A stretch of DNA of 64,000 nucleotides, taken from positions 11,062 to 75,061 of the forward strand of contig MFUM01000008.1 in the NCBI GenBank assembly GCA_001786955.1, given 5' to 3'. Source of the DNA: Candidatus Nomurabacteria bacterium RIFCSPHIGHO2_12_FULL_42_19. GTDB lineage: Bacteria > Patescibacteriota > Minisyncoccia > Phycocordibacterales > UBA9973. The notes beneath the pieces are model-generated. The model was not told where the DNA came from, ran no database searches, and was given only the letters and a program-made list of their open reading frames with translations. Shown piece after piece: positions 7,009-13,690 of the stretch (its first letter is position 1; the number at the start of each line of letters is the position of its first letter). Both the position numbers and the translations under genes were made by a program.

Positions 7009-7023
7009 TCGCGCTATAATGAC

Positions 7024-7051
7024 GGTTGCGCGACATGATTTCGCGAAATCA
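7024..7051 (+). promoter_or_regulatory. Conserved ~27-nt element (tgcgcgacatgatttcgcgaaatcaat) immediately upstream of pilin-like gene; copy 1
   Basis: 27/29 identical to the element at 7765-7798 upstream of the third pilin-like gene. Contains short inverted repeat cgcga-N8-tcgcg. Confidence 0.4.
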
Positions 7052-7450
7052 ATGAAAAAAACAAAAAAATTCCTAATTTTTATTTCAATATTTTTAATAC
7101 TAGTTATGCCGGTTCTGTCTTTGGCATACACACTTGGAGAACCCTTAGTGCCACCTTGCAGTACAGCAGCAGCACCAGAGCAATGTGGATGGGGTCAGCT
7201 AATGGGGCTTGTCGATAATGTTATTACTTTTATTTTGAAGTATATGGCTGTGCCGATTGCGGCGATAATGTTCGCTTATGCCGGTTTTCTTTTGGTCACA
7301 GCGGGCGGGGAAGCGGCTGGCGCCAGGACGAAAGCCAAGTCAATTTTTACCAATGCGGCAATTGGCTTGATTCTTGCCGTGGCCGCCTGGCTGATTATTA
7401 AGACGATATTGGCAATTTTGGGCTACGAAGGGGCTTGGATTGGATTTTAA
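7052..7450 (+). CDS. TrbC/VirB2-like (T4SS-pilin-like) small membrane protein; signal peptide plus two TM helices
   Basis: ORF track starts at 7019; an in-frame ATG at 7052 (MKKTKKFLIF...) gives a typical signal peptide. Two hydrophobic helices separated by the charged loop 'GGEAAGARTKAKS'. Confidence 0.5.
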   Translation: MKKTKKFLIFISIFLILVMPVLSLAYTLGEPLVPPCSTAAAPEQCGWGQLMGLVDNVITFILKYMAVPIAAIMFAYAGFLLVTAGGEAAGARTKAKSIFTNAAIGLILAVAAWLIIKTILAILGYEGAWIGF

Positions 7451-7737
7451 TATGTGTTACAATTAAAACGATGATTAATAATCCAATACCAAATATAACT
7501 TCAATACCCAATCTCATTCAAACCATTCTGGAAGGCGCGCTGAAAATCGGCATGCCAGTCGTGGCATTGGCGGTTATTTACTGCGGTTTTCTTTTTGTTT
7601 TTGCCCGGGGCAATCCAGAGAAATTGACTAAAGCCAGAGAAGCCCTTCTTTATACATTAATCGGCGCGGCAATACTTCTGGGATCGTGGGCTATTGCCAA
7701 GATGATATCTGCTACCGTGACCGGGCTTGGGTCTTAA
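7435..7737 (+). CDS. TrbC/VirB2-like (T4SS-pilin-like) small membrane protein, divergent paralog
   Basis: Two TM helices flanking the charged loop 'RGNPEKLTKAREA'; same architecture as neighbours. Start uncertain (overlaps previous ORF). Confidence 0.4.
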   Translation: MDWILICVTIKTMINNPIPNITSIPNLIQTILEGALKIGMPVVALAVIYCGFLFVFARGNPEKLTKAREALLYTLIGAAILLGSWAIAKMISATVTGLGS

Positions 7738-7764
7738 AATTATTATTAAGCGTCGCGCTTTAAT

Positions 7765-7798
7765 GGACTTTGCGCAACATGATTTCGTGAAATCAATT
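7765..7798 (+). promoter_or_regulatory. Conserved upstream element, copy 2 (tgcgcaacatgatttcgtgaaatcaat)
   Basis: Near-identical to 7024-7051; ends at the likely true start codon (7799). Confidence 0.4.
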
Positions 7799-8506
7799 AT
7801 GAAAAAATTATTTAAAATCATTCCCATACTTTTTTTTACAATCTTATTTCCAATTATTGCCTTGGCTGATTTTGTGGGTCCTTGTCCTACAGGTACTCAC
7901 TATACCATTTCAGGTTGTGTTCCTGACGGTTTGGGCGGTATATTATACAATATATCAAAACTCCTTAATTTAATTATCCCAGTTTTACTGTCTTTGGGCG
8001 TGGTCTATTTTGTTTGGGGAGTGGTGCGGTATGTTATTGGCGATAGTGAAGAAGCTAAAAAGAAAGGAAGGGACAGAATGATATATGGCATCATCGGCCT
8101 GACTGTTATCACCAGTTTATGGGGACTTGTGAATATCGTCGTTGAAACTTTTGGTATTGGTGGTGCTTCTGCGCCTTCATTAGAACCTTTAACCGGGCCG
8201 GCTTCTACCTGTAATCTTGCAGGCAATCCTAAATTTCAGGATCTTTTATGCTATATCACCCGCATTATTAACGATTCGGTAATTCCTTTGATTTTTGCCC
8301 TGGCTACGGTTATGTTTGTCTGGGGTATGGTAAACTTTTTTATACTTAATGCTGATGAAGAAGTTAAAAGGGCGCAGGGCAAGCAGTTTATGATTTGGGG
8401 GATTGTTGCTTTGGCGGTAATGCTTTCTGTCTGGGGATTGGTCGGAATACTTGGCAGCACCTTTAATGTTGACAGCTCAATTCTTCCACAGGTAACTCCG
8501 CCCTAA
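7799..8506 (+). CDS. Tandem double T4SS-pilin-like protein (two pilin modules fused in one ORF)
   Basis: Two copies of the module '...VYFVWGV..Y.IGDSEEAKKKGRDRMIYGIIGLTV...LWGLVNIV..TFG', starting near residues 80 and 170. ORF track start is 7727; likely start is 7799 (MKKLFKIIPILFF). Confidence 0.55.
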   Translation: MKKLFKIIPILFFTILFPIIALADFVGPCPTGTHYTISGCVPDGLGGILYNISKLLNLIIPVLLSLGVVYFVWGVVRYVIGDSEEAKKKGRDRMIYGIIGLTVITSLWGLVNIVVETFGIGGASAPSLEPLTGPASTCNLAGNPKFQDLLCYITRIINDSVIPLIFALATVMFVWGMVNFFILNADEEVKRAQGKQFMIWGIVALAVMLSVWGLVGILGSTFNVDSSILPQVTPP

Positions 8507-8703
8507 TTTGCCAGCTTATAGATGTTTTACTTTAATTATGCTTGTGCTATAATTAAGGAATAAGAGAAGGATAAATAAGCTTGCTTGTTTATCCCGAACG
8601 AAAGAGTTGATTATATTGTATTTAGTTATATAATTAAGGGACATTATTAGTTATTATAAGGTCGTTTTATTATTAACATTATTATTAGAATATTAGGAAT
8701 CAT

Positions 8704-9096
8704 ATGAAAAAGAAATTAATTGTGTTGTCGGGTTTCGTTTTAGGCTTGGCGCCGGTTGTGGCACTGGCTCAAACTACCGGTGGTTTGGTTGGGTGTACTG
8801 CTGCCAATGCCCCAGGAGGAACTATCCAATATTTAATATGTAAACTGGGTGATCTTCTTAATCTTGTTGTTCCGATTCTTATAGCGCTGGGAGTGGTTTA
8901 TTTTGTCTGGGGAGTCATTACTTATATGATTGGTAGTGATGAAGAGGCAAAAAAAGCGGGAAGAGACCGCATTATCTTTGGTATTATCGGTCTGGCTGTT
9001 ATTATAGCCTTGTGGGGGCTTGTAAGAATATTGACAAATACTTTTGGGGTTCCTACGGCTGGCCAAGGTGTTACTTTGCCGACCACACCTTACTAG
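8704..9096 (+). CDS. T4SS-pilin-like (TrbC/VirB2-like) protein
   Basis: Signal peptide (MKKKLIVLSGFVLGLAPVVALA) and the module 'VVYFVWGVITYMIGSDEEAKKAGRDRIIFGIIGLAVIIALWGLV', near-identical to the modules in 7799-8506. Confidence 0.6.
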   Translation: MKKKLIVLSGFVLGLAPVVALAQTTGGLVGCTAANAPGGTIQYLICKLGDLLNLVVPILIALGVVYFVWGVITYMIGSDEEAKKAGRDRIIFGIIGLAVIIALWGLVRILTNTFGVPTAGQGVTLPTTPY

Positions 9097-9121
9097 TTCA
9101 TAAAGAAAAAGAAGACAAAAT

Positions 9122-9436
9122 ATGGATTTATTTTCTACGAAGATAGTTTACGCCAGTCTTGATTCTTTTATTGGAAAGGTAGACCGGATGATTATAAATC
9201 CGCTTATTTTGTTTCTCTTTGCTTTGGCCGTGGCGTATTTTCTTTACGGTGTTCTGGAGTTTTTTTTAAATCAGGAAAATGATGAGAAAAAAACAACCGG
9301 CAAAAGCCATATGCTTTGGGGTGTTATCGGGATTACCATAATGCTCGGAGTTTGGACTATTCTTGGTATTATTACAAACACCCTAGGGATATCTGGTCAA
9401 ATAAATCCAGAGCAGGGAACAGTAGACTTGAGATAA
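9122..9436 (+). CDS. T4SS-pilin-like small membrane protein, divergent
   Basis: Two TM helices separated by 'NQENDEKKTTGKSHMLWGVIGITIML', similar to the module of its neighbours. Confidence 0.45.
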   Translation: MDLFSTKIVYASLDSFIGKVDRMIINPLILFLFALAVAYFLYGVLEFFLNQENDEKKTTGKSHMLWGVIGITIMLGVWTILGIITNTLGISGQINPEQGTVDLR

Positions 9437-9462
9437 TTGTAATAAATCCTGATGCAATAAAA

Positions 9463-9496
9463 ACAAAAAAAATCCCCCTATTGGGGGATTTTTTTA
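9463..9496. terminator. Bidirectional rho-independent terminator (aaaaaaaatccccc-tatt-gggggattttttt)
   Basis: Perfect stem with flanking A/T runs between convergent genes. Confidence 0.7.
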
Positions 9497-9504
9497 GGCT
9501 GAGC

Positions 9505-10035
9505 CTATTCGTGCTTCAATGGTGTTGCGTGATAGTTCTCTTTGGTGTTAAAAATTATTCTTGTCAATATAACCAGCAACAAAATGAGTATTGCAAACAT
9601 GATCCACTGGATTAATCCGGAAGGCAGGAAACCGCTTATCCCGTAAAAAGCATTGGCTGCGAGACCGCTGTAAGTGTTGGAATTTTTTGTAGATGCAGAT
9701 GATGCTACGGTTTTTACGGCGCTGGCTGTTTTTACTTTTGCTGTTTTTGGAACAGTTGCCGAGTTTTCCGCATTCGGATTTACGCTATTTGAATAGACTA
9801 TCGGTGTAGGCGCGGGAGCCGGAGGGGGAGTATAAATCGGCGGCTGATAAGGAGATTGATTGGCATTATAATAATAACCATCATTATAATAACCATGAAC
9901 CGGTACAAAAACTTCATTAGCAGAAGCCTTGTTAAAAGGCATAAAAATCAAGACAAACGCCAAAATAGCCAATATTTTCAAGCCATAATTTATTGATTTG
10001 TTGTTTATTTTCTTCATATGCAAGTAGTATATCAC
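9505..10035 (-). CDS. Secreted/cell-surface protein, Tyr/Pro-rich low-complexity region, C-terminal TM anchor; hypothetical
   Basis: Signal peptide after the internal Met (MKKINNKS...ASA, likely start ~10017), a 'YYNDGYYYN...PPIYTPPPAPAPTP' region, and a C-terminal hydrophobic helix. Confidence 0.4.
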   Translation of the reverse strand: MIYYLHMKKINNKSINYGLKILAILAFVLIFMPFNKASANEVFVPVHGYYNDGYYYNANQSPYQPPIYTPPPAPAPTPIVYSNSVNPNAENSATVPKTAKVKTASAVKTVASSASTKNSNTYSGLAANAFYGISGFLPSGLIQWIMFAILILLLVILTRIIFNTKENYHATPLKHE

Positions 10036-10083
10036 TTATTAAGATAAAAGTCAAGCGGTTTTCTGGGGACACAAATAGAAAAG

Positions 10084-10121
10084 GCATCGATGGTGCCCTT
10101 TCAGGAAACCGGTCGATGCCT
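10084..10121 (-). terminator. Hairpin terminator downstream of the GC-rich gene
   Basis: ggcatcgatggtgccc...ggtcgatgcc stem followed (minus sense) by a T-rich run; a second hairpin gacgggt-ccatcgaa-cccgtc at 10133-10153. Confidence 0.4.
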
Positions 10122-10158
10122 GGATTTATTAGACGGGTCCATCGAACCCGTCCGGCTA

Positions 10159-10635
10159 CTATCTGCGCCTGTAGCCGATGATGGGGGCGAACACCCCTTG
10201 CCCCCCCTGGAGTCCGCCGCCGTAGGGCGAGGGGACAACGACCTGCAACGGCCGGTGGTCGTCCCGGCTGTTGTCGCGGCGGACTTCGTTGTCCTGGCGC
10301 GATTGTTCGCCGATGTGGCGGAGTCGCTCGACCTCAGCCGTTGTTTCGGCGGCCAAGATTTTTTTCGCCGCTTCGAGAGCAGACTCGGCTTTCACGAGTG
10401 CCAGCTTCGCTTCAGCGATTTTCGTCGCTGCCTCGATTTCCGCGATCTTTTTGTCGGTCGCGGTGACCGTCGTGGCCGTCATGTCGGTCGCCGTCTGTGC
10501 CGACACCGCCAGTGTGCAAGCCTGCCCGGTCGTGGAGCTGAACGCTGCCCCGGCCGTACAGCCTGCCGGGAAGGTTTGCGCCGACGCGGTGCCGACGAGT
10601 CCGAGAGCGAACACGACGACGAGAGTGAGTTTCAT
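10159..10635 (-). CDS. GC-rich gene encoding a secreted coiled-coil protein (signal peptide MKLTLVVVFALGLVGTASA), likely horizontally acquired
   Basis: Strong SD (GAGGAG) 7 nt upstream of the ATG at 10635. Signal peptide, Thr/Ala-rich region, heptad-like 'KKIAEIEAATKIAEAKLALVKAESALEAAKK'. GC content and codon usage are visibly unlike the flanks. The ORF track's 10159..10731 version has an upstream in-frame Met judged unlikely. Confidence 0.5.
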   Translation of the reverse strand: MKLTLVVVFALGLVGTASAQTFPAGCTAGAAFSSTTGQACTLAVSAQTATDMTATTVTATDKKIAEIEAATKIAEAKLALVKAESALEAAKKILAAETTAEVERLRHIGEQSRQDNEVRRDNSRDDHRPLQVVVPSPYGGGLQGGQGVFAPIIGYRRR

Positions 10636-10806
10636 GGTAATCTCCTCGTGAACTGGCGGGGTTAGCCACCGGGTTGATGGTATCTTTTTTTGGGTCTCCG
10701 TGCCTGGAAGCACTAATTTTTTTACTTGCAAACACGGAAACCCAATTATTTTAAAGAGCTGACTACTGGGGATAGTATAGCATATCTATACACAAAAGTC
10801 AAGGGT

Positions 10807-10825
10807 GCCGGGAGGGAAACTCGGT
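10807..10825 (-). repeat. Duplicated 3'-end fragment of tRNA-Leu (tgccgggagggaaactcgg)
   Basis: 18/19 match to the 3' acceptor/T-arm end of tRNA-Leu(TAG) at 10921-10940; no complete cloverleaf. Confidence 0.5.
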
Positions 10826-10834
10826 CACAGGTAT

Positions 10835-10895
10835 TTTTCTACTGAAAAATCCTGCGACCCCGTCTCGGTACGTCTGCCTCCGACTTTCGAGTCTG
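10835..10895 (-). repeat. Repeated tRNA-leader motif (core ttttcagcagaaaa on minus strand), copy 1
   Basis: 14-nt core shared with 11050-11063 and 11663-11676, with a degenerate ~40-nt extension. Confidence 0.4.
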
Positions 10896-10920
10896 GCAAA
10901 AATATATCCCATATATTTTG

Positions 10921-11002
10921 TGCCGGGAGGGAGACTCGAACTCCCAAGGGTTGCCCCACTAGTTCCTAAAACTAGCGCGTATACCAATTCCGCCATCCCG
11001 GC
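10921..11002 (-). tRNA. tRNA-Leu (anticodon TAG), class II with long variable arm
   Basis: Cloverleaf folds by hand: acceptor GCCGGGA/TCCCGGC, anticodon stem CTAGT/ACTAG with loop TTTAGGA, T-loop GTTCGAGTC, discriminator A. Confidence 0.85.
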
Positions 11003-11049
11003 ATGTAAATTCTCTCGTGCTTCGGTCCGCACTTTGTGGTCAGGAATAG

Positions 11050-11095
11050 TTTTCTGCTGAAAACTTTCCCAACCCGGACTCGCTCCGTCTCGCAC
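11050..11095 (-). repeat. Repeated tRNA-leader motif, copy 2 (upstream of tRNA-Leu-TAG)
   Basis: Core ttttctgctgaaaa (plus-strand reading). Confidence 0.4.
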
Positions 11096-11113
11096 AAAGC
11101 ATCCCATGCTTTG

Positions 11114-11186
11114 TGCGCCCTGAAGGGATCGAACCTTCGACCTTATCCTTAAGAGGGATCTGCTCTACCAGCTGAGCTAAGGGCGC
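11114..11186 (-). tRNA. tRNA-Lys (anticodon CTT)
   Basis: Acceptor GCGCCCT/AGGGCGC, D-arm GCTCAGCTGGTAGAGC, anticodon loop CTCTTAA, T-arm GAAGGTTCGATCCCTTC. Confidence 0.85.
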
Positions 11187-11231
11187 AAATATTTTATTTT
11201 TTCAAGAAACAATTATTTATTATCTTATAAT

Positions 11232-11262
11232 CTTTCGACCTACCAAAACAGCTAAGGGCGCA
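11232..11262 (-). repeat. tRNA-Lys-derived fragment (T-arm piece fused to 5' acceptor/D piece)
   Basis: ctttcgacct...cagctaagggcgca matches two separated parts of the adjacent tRNA-Lys. Confidence 0.45.
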
Positions 11263-11348
11263 TATAAATTTTAAAACAGCTATGCCTGCCCGTCCGTAGC
11301 GTAAGCGAAGGCGGGGGCGCAAATAATTTATTTTTTTAAAAAACAAAG

Positions 11349-11432
11349 TGCCCGGGGTGGGAATCGAACCCACATGACCTTGCGGTCGGGAAATTTTAAG
11401 TCTCCTGCGGCTACCAATTACGCCACCCGGGC
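11349..11432 (-). tRNA. tRNA-Leu (anticodon TAA), class II
   Basis: Acceptor GCCCGGG/CCCGGGC, anticodon stem GGAGA/TTTCC with loop CTTAAAA, long variable arm, T-arm GTGGGTTCGATTCCCAC. Confidence 0.85.
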
Positions 11433-11564: not shown

Positions 11565-11622
11565 TCCTCTGCGCAGAGGAATGGCATATTCGCTACGCTC
11601 ACGCCACTTGGCTACCAGGCCG
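11565..11622 (-). pseudogene. tRNA-Cys pseudo-copy: 5' half with an insertion in the D region, no T-arm
   Basis: ggcctggtagccaagtgg...attcctctgcgcagaggat parallels the tRNA-Cys 5' half up to the anticodon hairpin, then ends. Confidence 0.5.
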
Positions 11623-11662
11623 AATTTTTTTGAAATAGCTCTTCTCAAAATGCACACATAAT

Positions 11663-11710
11663 TTTCTGCTGAAAATTTGCTCTACTCGGCCCAGTCGGCC
11701 TGCGCAAGGC
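11663..11710 (-). repeat. Repeated tRNA-leader motif, copy 3 (upstream of the tRNA cluster)
   Basis: Core ttttctgctgaaaa. Confidence 0.4.
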
Positions 11711-11746: not shown

Positions 11747-12070
11747 CTAACCGTTTCGCAGCAGTTCGTCAATTTTCTGCCTGTTTTTTTCGCCCTGGTC
11801 TATCGCTACGTCCAGAAAAGGGATTATTTTTATCGGCATGCTCTTTTTCAAAAATTCTCGCAGTTCCGATCTCTTGCGTTTCGCAAATTCCAGCGCATCG
11901 TGTTCTTTGGCAGTCGGGAGCACGGTAATGAATATAGTAGCTCGTTTCAGGTCAGGCGAGGTGGTACAGGACATAACCGTGATGAGCGAAGTCCTGTTGT
12001 TTTCGCGCCCCAAAAATTGCGCTGCCAGTTCTTTGATTTGATTCGCTACTTTTTCATTCCTGTTTGTCAT
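11747..12070 (-). CDS. rbfA: Ribosome-binding factor A
   Basis: ~107 aa with a KH-like pattern ('RTSLITVMSCTTSPDLKRATIFITVL'); immediately downstream of infB (conserved infB-rbfA linkage); SD GGAGGAG upstream. Confidence 0.7.
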   Translation of the reverse strand: MTNRNEKVANQIKELAAQFLGRENNRTSLITVMSCTTSPDLKRATIFITVLPTAKEHDALEFAKRKRSELREFLKKSMPIKIIPFLDVAIDQGEKNRQKIDELLRNG

Positions 12071-12079
12071 GATGTTTTT

Positions 12080-12113
12080 CTCCTCCTGCGAAGGGGGAGA
12101 TTAAGAGGGGGTC
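12080..12113. repeat. Short C5/G5 motif element in the infB-rbfA intergenic spacer
   Basis: tctcctcctgcgaagggggagattaagagggggtc; also supplies the rbfA SD. Confidence 0.3.
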
Positions 12114-13690
12114 TATTTCTGCACTACGTTGAACGCTTCTATCATGTCTCCGGCCACAACTTCTATTTTTGATTCAATCATCATCCCAAACTCGGCGCCT
12201 TCTTCCACGATGCTTGTTTTTACCTTGTTTTTTTCTAAATTCACGATTTTTCCGCGGCCAATTTCAAATTCCCGGCGCATTATTTTTACCGTGCTATTCA
12301 GGTTGATTTGTCCTTCAATTACTTTGCCTCCGACTATTTGGCGTTCTTTTGTGCGGCTAAAAGCCCGGATAATTTTTGCCCGGCCAGTTGTTTCAATTGT
12401 TTCAATTCTCGGTCTTTTTTCTTCCATTTGTTCCTCGAGCCACTCGGTCAGTTTATAAATAATATTAAAAAAAGAAATTATTACTCCTCTTTTTTGCGCG
12501 ATTTCTATGGCGCTCTTGTCGGTCTTCACGTTGAATCCGATGACCAGCGCGTTAATGCCGGATGCCACTCCTTTTATATCCGATTCGGAAATAGGCCCGA
12601 TGCCTTTTCCGACAATTCTGAATTCGGCATTCTTGCTTACGGTGGCGTTAAGCTCGGAGTTTATTTTGGCGATTTCTTTTTCAATAGCTTCAATTGAGCC
12701 GGAAACGTCGGCTTTTAATATTATCGGTATTACTTTTTTACCACTCCCAACCCCCTCCTTATCAAGGCGGGGAATTTCTCCTCCTCGTTGAGGAGGAGTG
12801 TCTGAAGGGTGAGGTGGTAAATTTTTGGCATATTTTTCAGCGTCCGATTTTTTTTGAAAAGATTTGAATTGCGCTCCGACTCTCGGCATCTTGTCAAAAC
12901 CCACAATGCGTATCGGGGAAGAAAAACTGGCTTCGTCTATCATTTTTCCCGAAAAATTTTCAATTATTCGCGTGGAGCACAGGCTGTCTTCCACGACGAC
13001 GGTCATCCCTTTTTTAATTGACCCGTTTTTTATAATCAAAGTTGCCAGTATTCCGCGCCTGGAATCTAGATTTACTTCGATTACAAAGCCGGAAGCGTCT
13101 TCTTCAATGCTGCCGGTCAAATTTTCCATTTCAGCTAAAATCAAGATTAGCGACAGCAGATTGTCTATTCCCGTGCCGATTTTCGCGGAAATTTCCGCGT
13201 AAGGGACTTTTCCTCCGTAATTTTCCAGATAAATTTCATTTTCCGCCAATTCTTTTTTTGTTTTTTCTACATTGGCGCCCGGCTTATCTATTTTATTTAT
13301 TGCGACAATACACGGAGTTTTGGATTCTACGATGGTTTTCCAGGCCTCAATCGTTTGTGGTTTTACGCCATCTTCAGCCGAAACGACCAGAATGGCAATG
13401 TCAGCTATTTGCGCACCTCGTTCCCGCATTTTTGAAAAAGCCTCGTGTCCGGGAGTGTCCAAAAAAGTTATTTTTCTATCTTTCCCATTTTCACCTGCCT
13501 GCGCAGGCAGGTCTTTATGCACAACTTCATAAGCGGAGATTTTCTGAGTTATGCCTCCGGCTTCATTTTCAGTGATATTCGTCTTCCTGATATAATCAAG
13601 CAACGTTGATTTTCCGTGATCAATATGGCCCATAACAACTACTATAGGCGCACGAACCTCCAAATTTAATTTTTTGTCATTTTTTTCCAT
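12113..13690 (-). CDS. infB: Translation initiation factor IF-2 (short form lacking the N-terminal domain)
   Basis: G-domain 'VVVMGHIDHGKSTLLD', 'DTPGHEAF', 'NKIDK'; beta-barrel domains C-terminal to it. Carries an in-frame GC-rich insert (see repeat 12741-12817). Confidence 0.9.
   Translation of the reverse strand: MEKNDKKLNLEVRAPIVVVMGHIDHGKSTLLDYIRKTNITENEAGGITQKISAYEVVHKDLPAQAGENGKDRKITFLDTPGHEAFSKMRERGAQIADIAILVVSAEDGVKPQTIEAWKTIVESKTPCIVAINKIDKPGANVEKTKKELAENEIYLENYGGKVPYAEISAKIGTGIDNLLSLILILAEMENLTGSIEEDASGFVIEVNLDSRRGILATLIIKNGSIKKGMTVVVEDSLCSTRIIENFSGKMIDEASFSSPIRIVGFDKMPRVGAQFKSFQKKSDAEKYAKNLPPHPSDTPPQRGGEIPRLDKEGVGSGKKVIPIILKADVSGSIEAIEKEIAKINSELNATVSKNAEFRIVGKGIGPISESDIKGVASGINALVIGFNVKTDKSAIEIAQKRGVIISFFNIIYKLTEWLEEQMEEKRPRIETIETTGRAKIIRAFSRTKERQIVGGKVIEGQINLNSTVKIMRREFEIGRGKIVNLEKNKVKTSIVEEGAEFGMMIESKIEVVAGDMIEAFNVVQK
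12741..12817. repeat. G/C-rich palindromic mini-element inserted in-frame in infB (encodes ~PPHPSDTPPQRGGEIPRLDKEGVGSG)
   Basis: 'ccactcccaaccccctccttatcaaggcggggaa...gaggaggag...gaggtgg'. Shares its opening CCAC(C/T)CCCAACCCC(C)TCC with the typA insert at 19781-19797, and the ccttatcaagg core with mnmA copy C (26131-26207). Confidence 0.55.

Follow-up and report, generated by a model that had tools for sequence, protein, structure and literature searches.

A persistently GC-rich cassette for a predicted secreted coiled-coil protein in a variable chromosomal slot of Nomurabacteria

Organization of the cassette and its slot

The window, i.e. the whole stretch of 64,000 nucleotides that was analysed, carries on its minus strand a short, GC-rich gene located between a tRNA-Leu gene and the gene of a second secreted protein, nbr170. 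The features of the locus are as follows; L001 is a second Nomurabacteria genome.

7019-9436, plus strand: paralogous T4SS-pilin genes (PF18895) in a cluster that forms the conserved surroundings of the slot
9505-10017, minus strand: nbr170, coding for a secreted protein of 170 aa that is rich in Tyr and Pro and has a membrane anchor at its C-terminus
10026-10054, minus strand: nbr170 promoter (TTGACT, N17, TATACT with TG), downstream border of the slot
10072-10121, minus strand: terminator hairpin with the closing stem AGGCAUCGA/UCGAUGCCU, followed by a U tract; motif conserved in the family
10131-10153, minus strand: 3' hairpin 1, GACGGGUUC-GAU-GGACCCGUC, with 2 base pairs showing compensatory changes among 7 cassettes
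10159-10635, minus strand: CDS of 158 aa plus stop, 65% GC, GC3 0.78, core dN/dS ~0.09 against L001
10162-10248, minus strand: Gly/Pro/Val-rich disordered tail ending in YRRR (pLDDT <50)
10338-10249, minus strand: charged motif AEVERLRHIGEQSRQDNEVRRDNSRDDHRP, conserved across the family
10261-10530, minus strand: single long alpha-helix, aa 36-125, probably a coiled coil (AlphaFold2 model)
10579-10635, minus strand: predicted signal peptide MKLTLVVVFALGLVGTASA with cleavage at ASA|Q, read from the sequence
10636-10766, minus strand: 5'UTR of ~130 nt, with a long hairpin at ~10745-10690 in the whole-transcript fold
10647-10642, minus strand: Shine-Dalgarno sequence GAGGAG, within the 5'UTR
10774-10802, minus strand: cassette promoter, TTGACT, 17-nt spacer and extended -10 element TGCTATACT
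10805-10823, minus strand: 19-nt copy of the tRNA-Leu(UAG) 3' end (18/19 identical to 10920-10938), abutting the cassette promoter
10824-10919, minus strand: 96-nt spacer homologous to the native tRNA-Leu(UAG) leader (alignment)
10920-11002, minus strand: tRNA-Leu(UAG), upstream border of the variable slot

The GC content of the 500-bp interval 10101-10600 is 64.2%, the maximum of the 64 kb and ~4.6 SD above its mean of 41.1% (SD 5.0%). Within the CDS, GC1, GC2 and GC3 are 0.64, 0.52 and 0.78, respectively, while GC3 averages 0.42 (SD 0.07) over 60 long ORFs of the window. The GC island is real, and the original prediction that the block 10090-10700 is GC-rich, third codon positions included, is confirmed. 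The analysis also supports the presence of a complete, compositionally aberrant gene for a secreted protein. The search for the same gene at the same site in related genomes revealed a 50%-identical orthologue in L001, and we consider the gene real because the conserved core differs from this orthologue with a dN of 0.17 and a dS of ~2, indicating purifying selection in the CDS frame. Two details had to be corrected: the product has 158 and not 159 residues, and the Shine-Dalgarno spacing is GAGGAG-N6-ATG instead of GAGGAG-N7-ATG. The remaining elements were present as described, namely the signal peptide, the Thr/Ala linker, the Ala/Lys helix, the Gly-rich tail and two hairpins downstream of the CDS (10153-10131 and 10121-10082, then a T tract), which show compensatory changes.

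Judged from its sequence elements, the region 10072-10802 of the minus strand is a single self-contained transcription unit, apparently built for high expression, with a consensus extended -10 promoter, a strong Shine-Dalgarno sequence and a strong terminator. Its promoter is one of just three TTGAC-N16-19-TATAMT sites in the 64 kb, and the 96-nt 3' region has a folding z of -5.4. In other family members the 5'UTR contains a GC-rich stretch (judged by eye to be a hairpin) and then a Shine-Dalgarno-region motif, e.g. CTTCGACAAGGAGA.

Sequence searches of the protein against Pfam, NCBIfam, PHROGs and PDB returned only noise, so no known family could be assigned; the PF18895 pilin profile did not match it either, whereas it matched four neighbouring ORFs. 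The AlphaFold2 monomer model shows one long helix, with pLDDT >90 at aa 61-100 and 89-91 at aa 101-120. The AxA|Q cleavage site recurs in the family members P0002-P0009. A lipobox occurs in some family members (L092, L029, P0009); the window protein lacks a canonical one, and its last three residues are RRR. The tails of most relatives are Gly/Tyr-rich, and the C-terminal residue is basic or aromatic in nearly all of them. The product is predicted to be exported via the Sec pathway and would have a role at the cell surface. We think it most likely that an elongated coiled-coil protein is made for the cell envelope or surface, probably in abundance and with a disordered, basic, Gly-rich tail, and that this protein probably works together with the anchored nbr170 protein and the T4SS-type pilins.

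The surroundings are those of a core chromosome, with a tRNA cluster, rbfA and infB on one side and pilins, SBP and gyrA on the other. Pfam analysis of all large ORFs within ~10 kb identified S1, MBL, GyrA, methyltransferase, SBP, pilin, DUF4446, aminotransferase and BipA proteins and no integrase or transposase. The pilin cluster is also present in L001 and L083. According to the original prediction, a tRNA-Leu 3' fragment 12 nt away pointed to site-specific integration. The fragment lies 96 nt from the tRNA, and since it sits between the tRNA and the cassette promoter, it does not bracket the gene. The two repeats enclose just 96 nt of the tRNA's own leader, and because this spacer is homologous to that leader, the spacer and the stub together are explained as a tandem duplicate of the leader-tRNA unit with an internal deletion. 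This unit stands in tandem in L043, and the stub abutting the promoter recurs in L003. We also considered the promoters flanking the gene as a target-site duplication and rejected it, as only the consensus elements agree and the spacers match at 6 of 14 positions (own count).

Among the other related genomes, the site was covered in 21 at species level, and a recognisable homologue is missing there in all of them. The slot is empty in L007, where the nbr170 promoter follows directly after the tRNA, and likewise in L009, L010 and L046; L003, L025, L029 and L043 have other cassettes there, and L023 has an rve transposase. These data support the view that the cassette is an accessory gene and the site an insertion hotspot.

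A family of cassettes with conserved untranslated modules

A search of 1.84 billion representative proteins at a threshold of E ≤ 1e-3 yielded nine relatives, all on CPR-type contigs of 36-50% GC, where most of them form GC-rich islands. The family as defined here comprises the window cassette, P0002-P0009, L091, L092 and the distant L029. The window cassette shares the family traits of an export signal, a long helix, a Gly/Tyr/Arg-rich disordered tail and a GC3 well above its flanks. Cassette GC3 ranges from 0.45 to 0.87 against a flank GC of 0.36-0.50, is the higher value in 13 of 13 comparisons and correlates with flank GC (Spearman rho 0.62-0.71). The least GC-rich copies are L088 and the truncated copy of L083; as L088 is intact and has a near-native GC3 of 0.45, the high GC is not obligatory. 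Neither the 1.84 billion representatives nor the collections of phages and plasmids yielded a homologue in a high-GC context, and viral contigs, phage records and plasmids gave no match to a cassette copy. Scans of GTDB genomes and JGI metagenomes seeded with patterns from a two-protein alignment produced no confirmed relatives.

Family members are found in two slots. One, site A, is immediately upstream of nbr170, the constant downstream neighbour of its cassettes. The upstream contexts of site-A copies vary (tRNA-Leu, atpH, or ClpB plus tRNA); in the window and in L001 the upstream neighbour is tRNA-Leu(UAG). Site B, between RNase R and rpsP, is found in another clade, and all five site-B loci are occupied and syntenic. 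At this site the S16 proteins are 79-87% identical while the cassette proteins are only 21-40% identical, and the cassette coding region evolves 7-10 times faster than the neighbouring S16. The slots as such are hypervariable: depending on the lineage, the occupant is a cassette of the family, another small secreted protein or lipoprotein with a Gly/Tyr tail or an IS element, and in some lineages the slot is empty. On an IF-2 tree the distribution of the family is patchy: the window and L001 belong to different subclades, separated by at least 11 intervening genomes without a recognisable homologue, a pattern that fits lateral spread and repeated loss alike.

The untranslated parts of the cassette are better conserved than the protein. 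All 11 cassettes examined have the same CPR-type promoter, made up of TTGAC(A/T) and TATA(C/T)T with 16-17 nt between them, and in 10 of them the -10 element is extended by a TG; the window cassette follows this pattern at 10774-10802, together with a GC-rich 5'UTR element and the Shine-Dalgarno sequence. The 3' module, consisting of hairpin 1 and an AAGGCRTCG...CGAYGCCTTTT terminator, is shared by most of the relatives and has a mean nucleotide identity of 80%, while the proteins are 21-50% identical. The window copy fits this consensus, and in the 745 kb searched the terminator motif was found solely behind family genes. With a covariance model of the module the window scores 83 bits, but as it was one of the seven training sequences, it matches by construction; the held-out L090 scored 34.5 bits. 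L084 and L087 gave no match with this model and have two 3' hairpins of different sequence instead. A DNA scan for the 3' module recovered two extra cassettes whose proteins are no longer recognisably homologous. The 3' modules group by chromosomal site, A versus B.

Our literature search found neither this family nor persistently GC-rich CPR genes described, and we regard the family as undescribed so far. By its sequence record it appears to be a rare and very fast-evolving cassette family that is restricted to Nomurabacteria-like CPR bacteria.

Persistence of the high GC content and its explanation

The orthologue of L001 has a GC3 of 0.79, while the flanking genes have GC3 values of 0.35-0.54 and dS values of 1.0-1.5. 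Between the two cassettes pS is 0.68-0.70, and 0.67 is expected for unrelated sequences. The synonymous sites are thus fully randomised, and both genes still have a GC3 of ~0.78. High GC is therefore a long-standing trait of the cassette family that persists through synonymous turnover, and since it outlasts complete turnover, some GC-favouring force must act on the cassette. Strong expression alone does not yield high GC, because nbr170 shares the promoter type of the cassette, yet has normal GC. Our best guess is that selection on the transcript, for a stable, structured and RNase-resistant mRNA, would keep the GC high. In synonymous-codon shuffles the mean z was -2.75 for family genes and -0.73 for controls (one-sided Mann-Whitney p = 0.02), a family-wide result that hints at selection on mRNA structure; the window gene alone had a z of -1.2, which is inside the control range and not significant. 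The GC-rich sequence itself may ultimately stem from an ancient transfer.

On balance, we consider it somewhat more probable than not that the locus as a whole is a cassette of a CPR family encoding a highly expressed, secreted coiled-coil surface protein, the GC content of which is kept high by a GC-favouring force, most likely selection. More tentatively, we propose that GC3 is held at 0.6-0.87 in CPR genomes of 36-50% GC, far from their mutational equilibrium, by a dedicated force, likeliest the need for a stable mRNA of an abundant envelope protein, and that the untranslated modules serve as expression "bookends" around a rapidly diversifying surface protein that works with the T4SS-type pilus of these episymbionts. 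Within this proposal, the force might alternatively be localised GC-biased conversion tied to frequent recombination at the slot.

The original prediction took the composition to suggest a transfer from a high-GC donor, with an actinobacterial host as one possibility if the genome is that of an episymbiont, and pointed to site-specific integration beside tRNA-Leu. The strong compositional contrast, the adjacent tRNA cluster, the 19 nt of the tRNA 3' end that recur as a direct repeat, and the lack of the gene in the closest relatives speak for such an event, and the accessory character of the gene at an insertion hotspot has stood. The recent import from a high-GC source has not: no high-GC homologue was found, family members occur in other CPR contexts away from tRNA genes, the promoter is of the native type, the gene lies outside the repeats, and no integrase was detected within ~10 kb. 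Moreover, the L001 orthologue, which comes from a distant relative and occupies the same site, is equally GC-rich despite its saturated synonymous sites, and a decaying foreign signature is therefore not supported. L088 (GC3 0.45) and the truncated L083 copy come part of the way to the AT-rich orthologue that had been named beforehand as evidence against transfer. Recent site-specific integration is thus largely refuted and very improbable. Still less credible, to the point of being negligible, is an artefact, that is, a chimeric assembly or a GC island that is in fact a non-coding RNA or an antisense gene. RNA genes do often form GC islands in AT-rich genomes, and a 191-aa antisense ORF spans the GC-rich block. 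However, a separate assembly has both junctions at 100% identity, and several samples show this architecture again, which disposes of the chimeric join about which the original prediction had cautioned, and the sense frame is under purifying selection. The RNA-gene reading was rejected because Rfam matched only four tRNAs in the cassette region and nothing at the site-B loci. An antisense gene was rejected as well: the antisense frame is interrupted in 5 of the 10 other cassettes examined, and such an ORF is expected as a by-product, since the cassette avoids TTA, CTA and TCA codons.

Two further explanations were considered. The cassette could be a moron-like element whose promoter, gene and terminator spread jointly among CPR from a GC-rich mobile pool (an unsampled CPR phage, a plasmid or a higher-GC CPR lineage), entering by homologous recombination via the conserved flanks or untranslated modules; its high GC would then mirror the pool, with copies replaced before they ameliorate. 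The patchy distribution on the IF-2 tree, the differing upstream contexts of site-A copies, the autonomous unit of deviating composition, the conserved modules around a hypervariable CDS and the readiness of the slot to take other cassettes and an IS element would all agree with this. Against it, no copy was found in the viral contigs, phage records and plasmids searched or in any GC-rich context, the 3' modules cluster by chromosomal site, the occupied site-B loci are syntenic, and the cassette dS against L001 is as saturated as that of the flanks, fitting co-divergence. We consider spread from such a pool unlikely. Lower still we place an ancient, one-time transfer to an ancestor of these CPR lineages from a high-GC donor, followed by passive, slow amelioration with no force acting, which we regard as improbable. 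It would account for GC1 and GC2 being raised like GC3, for a protein rich in Ala, Gly, Arg and Thr, and for the spread of GC3 from 0.45 to 0.87, as if members had ameliorated to differing degrees, with the truncated L083 copy and L088 the least GC-rich. Yet synonymous sites are randomised while GC3 is 0.6-0.87 in most copies, compared with ~0.3-0.5 in neighbouring genes, and neutral decay at such turnover should leave GC3 near the genomic value. In addition, no donor family was found among the 1.84 billion representatives; a donor homologue could have escaped the sequence searches, because family proteins diverge beyond recognition, as those of L091 and L092 have.

Atypical GC is routinely taken as a sign of recent transfer, a shortcut that fails for this cassette. 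As the unusual composition is a stable property of a gene family confined to its lineage, composition-based calls of horizontal transfer in CPR can mislead. The locus marks a slot of hypervariable content next to the T4SS-type pilin cluster of Nomurabacteria that holds rapidly evolving, probably highly expressed secreted proteins, which are plausible candidates for the surface molecules by which these ultra-small, uncultured bacteria attach to their hosts. Through the conserved untranslated modules, further cassettes can be traced even when their proteins have diverged past recognition.

Comparison with known systems

The morons of lambdoid phages are autonomous promoter-gene-terminator units of deviant base composition. 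Like them, the cassette consists of one gene with its own sigma-70 promoter and intrinsic terminator, has a deviant composition and a patchy distribution, and is inserted between two unrelated genes. Unlike morons, it sits in a core chromosomal context, at the same site across deep divergence, and its core neighbours and the lack of matches in the viral, phage and plasmid sequences searched give no indication of a prophage or phage location. With tRNA-linked islands that tyrosine recombinases integrate, the cassette shares the adjacent tRNA, the atypical GC, the accessory and patchy occurrence and a nearby direct repeat derived from the tRNA 3' end. It differs from them in that no integrase or transposase was found within ~10 kb, the repeats bracket only the tRNA leader, and other family members are not next to tRNAs. 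The features of a recent acquisition are likewise absent, with no closer or comparable high-GC homologue among the sequences searched and with pS against L001 saturated.

Integron cassettes are similar in being single-gene units with an imperfect hairpin element that is better conserved than the gene. In contrast to them, the present cassette has its own promoter, no intI and no cassette array; by inspection, its 3' element lacks the R''-L''/L'-R' organisation of attC and is a plain two-hairpin terminator region.

A purely functional analogy may be drawn with Braun's lipoprotein Lpp and similar abundant alanine-zipper envelope proteins. Lpp, which forms a trimeric coiled coil attached to the cell wall, is a small exported protein with one long Ala-rich helix and a short basic C-terminus (YRK in Lpp, YRRR in the cassette protein), and its transcription unit, like that of the cassette, bears the marks of very strong expression and of an mRNA that is stable. 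The two are nevertheless distinct, as the hhalign probability is 1% and the window protein has neither a lipobox nor a C-terminal Lys and carries a long disordered tail; in addition, no outer membrane that could be tethered is known from CPR envelopes.

Hypervariable surface-protein loci, such as slots for variable antigens or pilin accessories, offer a further parallel. None of the silent copies, invertases or DGR-type machinery of such loci was seen here, and a persistent GC excess is unusual among them. As in those loci, however, a conserved promoter/5'UTR and 3' module surround a fast-evolving coding region, and unrelated secreted proteins alternate in a slot adjacent to a pilin cluster.

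The GC-rich gene and its surroundings

The GC content reaches 64.2% in the 500-bp segment 10101-10600, the maximum of the 64 kb, as compared with a window mean of 41.1% (SD 5.0%), which confirms the GC-rich block predicted beside the tRNA cluster; the GC-rich run cited in the original prediction is located at about 10218-10265. The predicted minus-strand gene is complete, with a Shine-Dalgarno sequence before the ATG and two downstream hairpins, but its product has 158 rather than 159 amino acids and the spacing to the ATG is 6 nt instead of 7. Its GC1/2/3 values are 0.64/0.52/0.78, while GC3 averages 0.42 (SD 0.07) in 60 long ORFs of the window. The gene and its flanking signals, here called the cassette, are:

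10802-10774, minus strand: near-perfect promoter, TTGACT, 17-nt spacer, TGCTATACT
following the promoter, minus strand: 5'UTR of about 130 nt with a long hairpin, then GAGGAG-N6-ATG
10635-10159, minus strand: CDS of the GC-rich gene
10153-10131 and 10121-10082, minus strand: two 3' hairpins, followed by a U tract

Only three sites of this promoter type, the cassette's own included, are found in the 64-kb window, and the 96-nt 3' region has a folding z of -5.4. The cassette lies among core genes, in this order:

One side: S1, MBL-fold protein, GyrA, methyltransferase, SBP, four PF18895 (T4SS pilin) ORFs, then nbr170 (encoding a 170-aa Tyr/Pro-rich anchored protein)
Onward from nbr170: GC-rich gene, tRNA-Leu(UAG), Lys, Leu(UAA), Cys
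Other side of the tRNAs: RbfA, IF-2, DUF4446, aminotransferase, 906-aa ORF, tRNA-Tyr, BipA

No integrase or transposase is present among these genes. IF-2 (12113-13690, minus strand) has orthologues of 62-84% identity in MAGs mostly labelled Candidatus Nomurabacteria, Paceibacterota or Patescibacteria; some carry other labels, probably erroneous. The four pilin ORFs (7019-9436) followed by nbr170, an arrangement kept across Nomurabacteria loci, are probably a surface-appendage locus.

Chimeric assembly, which the original prediction wished to see excluded, is ruled out. The 2.8-kb contig L002, the product of a separate assembly, matches window 8943-11389 at 100% identity and covers both cassette junctions. 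The same gene order is seen in L001, a 212-kb contig (41% GC) that comes from a different sample; its ClpB is syntenic with the 906-aa ORF, and at the same position it encodes a protein (P0002) 50% identical to the window protein, from a gene with 65% GC and a GC3 of 0.79. Beyond 11389, the identity of L002 (1-342) stops inside tRNA-Leu(UAA) and a different tRNA context follows, either by strain-level rearrangement at tRNA genes or by an assembly switch between tRNA paralogues.

The cassette family and its two chromosomal sites

A word-indexed search with the window protein retrieved only the identical protein and P0002. An exhaustive HMMER search of 1.84 billion representatives gave nine proteins at E<=1e-3, and a profile search of 5.8 billion clusters gave the same set. 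All contigs encoding them have 36-50% GC outside the cassette gene, which is a GC island on most. Two further cassettes, L091 and L092, were recovered from JGI metagenomes by a DNA-pattern scan for the 3' module. Their proteins are built like those of the family, from an export signal or a lipobox, a Thr-rich linker, a short helix and a Gly/Tyr tail that ends in RR or RRR, without detectable sequence similarity to the family.

Cassette GC3 at further loci
L084/L085: 0.83
L086: 0.87
L087: 0.65
L089: 0.75
L090: 0.74
L091: 0.74; flanks 37-38% GC
L092: 0.59; flanks 37-38% GC
L088, exception to the GC-island pattern: 0.45
L083, truncated copy fused behind atpH: 0.49

Downstream of a KH-domain gene, L092 (37% GC) also has another GC-rich stretch of some 400 bp (~327-722, native coordinates; 53-57% GC), with no convincing ORF and no Rfam match.

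Common to all cassettes are a promoter, TTGAC(A/T)-about N17-TATA(C/T)T, whose -10 is extended by a TG (TGCTATACT) in all except L084, a GC-rich 5'UTR element and a Shine-Dalgarno sequence. Most also have a 3' module, consisting of hairpin 1 and an AAGGCRTCG...CGAYGCCTTTT terminator. Its mean nucleotide identity is 80% over seven cassettes whose proteins are just 21-50% identical, with compensatory changes at three pairs. A search of 745 kb of related loci, together with the window, found it behind family genes only.

The cassettes occupy two slots. At site A, immediately upstream of nbr170 and the pilin cluster, are the window gene, its counterparts in L001 and L083 and, to judge by an nbr170-type promoter where the contig ends, probably the copies of L088 and L090 as well. 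Site B is bordered by RNase R and rpsP and is occupied in L086, L087, L089, L091 and L092; its flanks are mutually orthologous in all five loci (S16 79-90% identical). At site B the cassette dN is 0.64-0.99 as compared with about 0.1 for S16, so the coding part evolves 7-10 times faster than its neighbour. The 3' modules group by site, a pattern consistent with inheritance at each of the two sites.

The original interpretation is right in part: the gene is accessory, anomalous in composition and located in a hotspot. Site A is hypervariable, a homologue being recognisable in none of the 21 other related genomes covering it, and its contents differ between loci:

L007, L046, L009, L010: empty, the tRNA-Leu(UAG) 3' end abutting the nbr170 promoter or within ~40-80 nt of the gene
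L003: secreted protein, 253 aa, YQTG repeats
L025: lipoprotein, Gly/Tyr/Asn tail
L029: GC-elevated lipoprotein, Gly/Tyr/Arg tail, related terminator (weak covariance-model match, E = 0.16)
L043: GC-rich Pro-rich protein with the cassette's promoter type, and AT-rich Tyr/Gly protein
L023, 12559-13449: rve-family (IS-type) transposase between tRNA-Leu(UAG) and nbr170

A neighbour-joining tree of IF-2 places the window and L001 in different subclades, with at least 11 site-covered, homologue-free genomes among them.

Fragments and repeats in the tRNA region

A 19-nt copy of the tRNA-Leu 3' end (10805-10823) immediately precedes the cassette promoter. The duplication had been predicted, although at 12 nt from the tRNA; the distance is 96 nt. 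These 96 nt align to the tRNA's own upstream leader, TTTTCAGYAGAAAA hairpin included, and the stub is therefore part of a tandem copy of the leader-tRNA unit that has suffered an internal deletion. The stub is also present in L003. Because it does not bracket the GC-rich gene, and the gene of L001 has no stub, it is not the integration footprint that had been proposed; it does mark a recombination-prone junction.

Related repeats were seen nearby. In L043, tandem 120-bp units (tRNA-Leu leader plus 20-nt tRNA 3' end; two full copies and the beginning of a third) lie at 12940-13200 downstream of tRNA-Leu(UAG), and the variable-slot genes come after them. In the window, partial copies of the tRNA-Cys 5' end (18-nt perfect and 16-nt; 11573-11621) and a 27-nt copy of the tRNA-Lys 5' end (11240-11266) lie just upstream of the respective intact genes; the latter is conserved in L007 (GCGCCCATAGCTGTTTTGGTAAGTCGAAAGATT) and is therefore old or functional. 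Three copies of a leader element with the hairpin TTTTCTGCTGAAAA precede tRNA genes or tRNA fragments (10831-10862, 11046-11077, 11658-11689). Related copies are present in L001 and L043, and the element may serve as a tRNA leader or in tRNA processing. A 240-aa AT-rich ORF of L001 (8846-9568; 33% GC) between tRNA-Leu(UAA) and tRNA-Lys, absent from the window and with just weak N-terminal HTH matches, may be a homing-endonuclease-like insertion. In L027 (45% GC), a 258-aa secreted-protein gene without Pfam match (11912-12688, between rbfA and tRNA-Cys) lies in a GC island with a 200-bp peak of 64%, apparently a further compositional island, distinct from the cassette, within this tRNA region.

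Origin of the GC excess and the encoded protein

The original prediction, read as a recent transfer from a high-GC donor, was rejected. No cassette homologue was found in any high-GC context among the 1.84 billion representatives or in phage and plasmid records, and the promoter is of the lineage's own type. Window and L001 orthologues differ at 68-70% of synonymous sites, where 67% is expected for unrelated sequences of that composition, and the flanking genes are saturated to the same degree (dS 1.0-1.5). Cassette GC3 nevertheless stays at 0.78-0.79 in both, with flanks at 0.35-0.54. Site-B cassettes likewise keep their GC3 despite synonymous divergence. With saturated synonymous turnover and AT-biased mutation, we infer that most of the GC excess should be gone under neutral decay. 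Cassette GC3 exceeds flank GC in 13/13 loci, and the two are correlated (rho 0.62-0.71, p ~0.01-0.02), as would be expected if the cassette tracks the resident genome with a constant upward offset.

Transcription-linked mutational bias alone is unlikely to explain this, because nbr170, which also has a promoter of this type, is normal in GC. We prefer a reading in which selection on the transcript would hold the GC high. The cassette has all the features typical of very strong expression and a stable mRNA (consensus extended -10 promoter, 5' hairpin, strong Shine-Dalgarno, 3' hairpin, strong terminator). In synonymous-codon shuffles, family CDSs fold more stably than expected (mean z -2.75 versus -0.73 for ten control genes; one-sided Mann-Whitney p = 0.02), with just -1.2 for the window gene itself. 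Localised GC-biased conversion and turnover from an unsampled GC-rich mobile pool are possible alternatives to such selection.

The gene encodes a real protein, which belongs to no known family. When window and L001 are compared, dN is 0.17 and dS ~2 in the conserved core, with many purely synonymous changes inside the motif AEVERLRHxGEQxRQDNEVRRDNSRDDHRP, and the window protein has no match in Pfam, NCBIfam, PHROGs, PDB, phage records or plasmid records. AlphaFold2 predicts a signal-peptide helix, a single continuous helix over residues 36-125 (pLDDT >90 over 61-100; 89-91 over 101-120) and a disordered tail. We conclude that the gene belongs to a new cassette family for predicted secreted coiled-coil proteins. 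The family is rare, evolves fast, is found in Nomurabacteria-like CPR bacteria, and is unusual in that its expression modules are conserved and its GC excess persists. The closest functional analogy that we can name is E. coli Lpp, to which the window protein has no sequence relationship.
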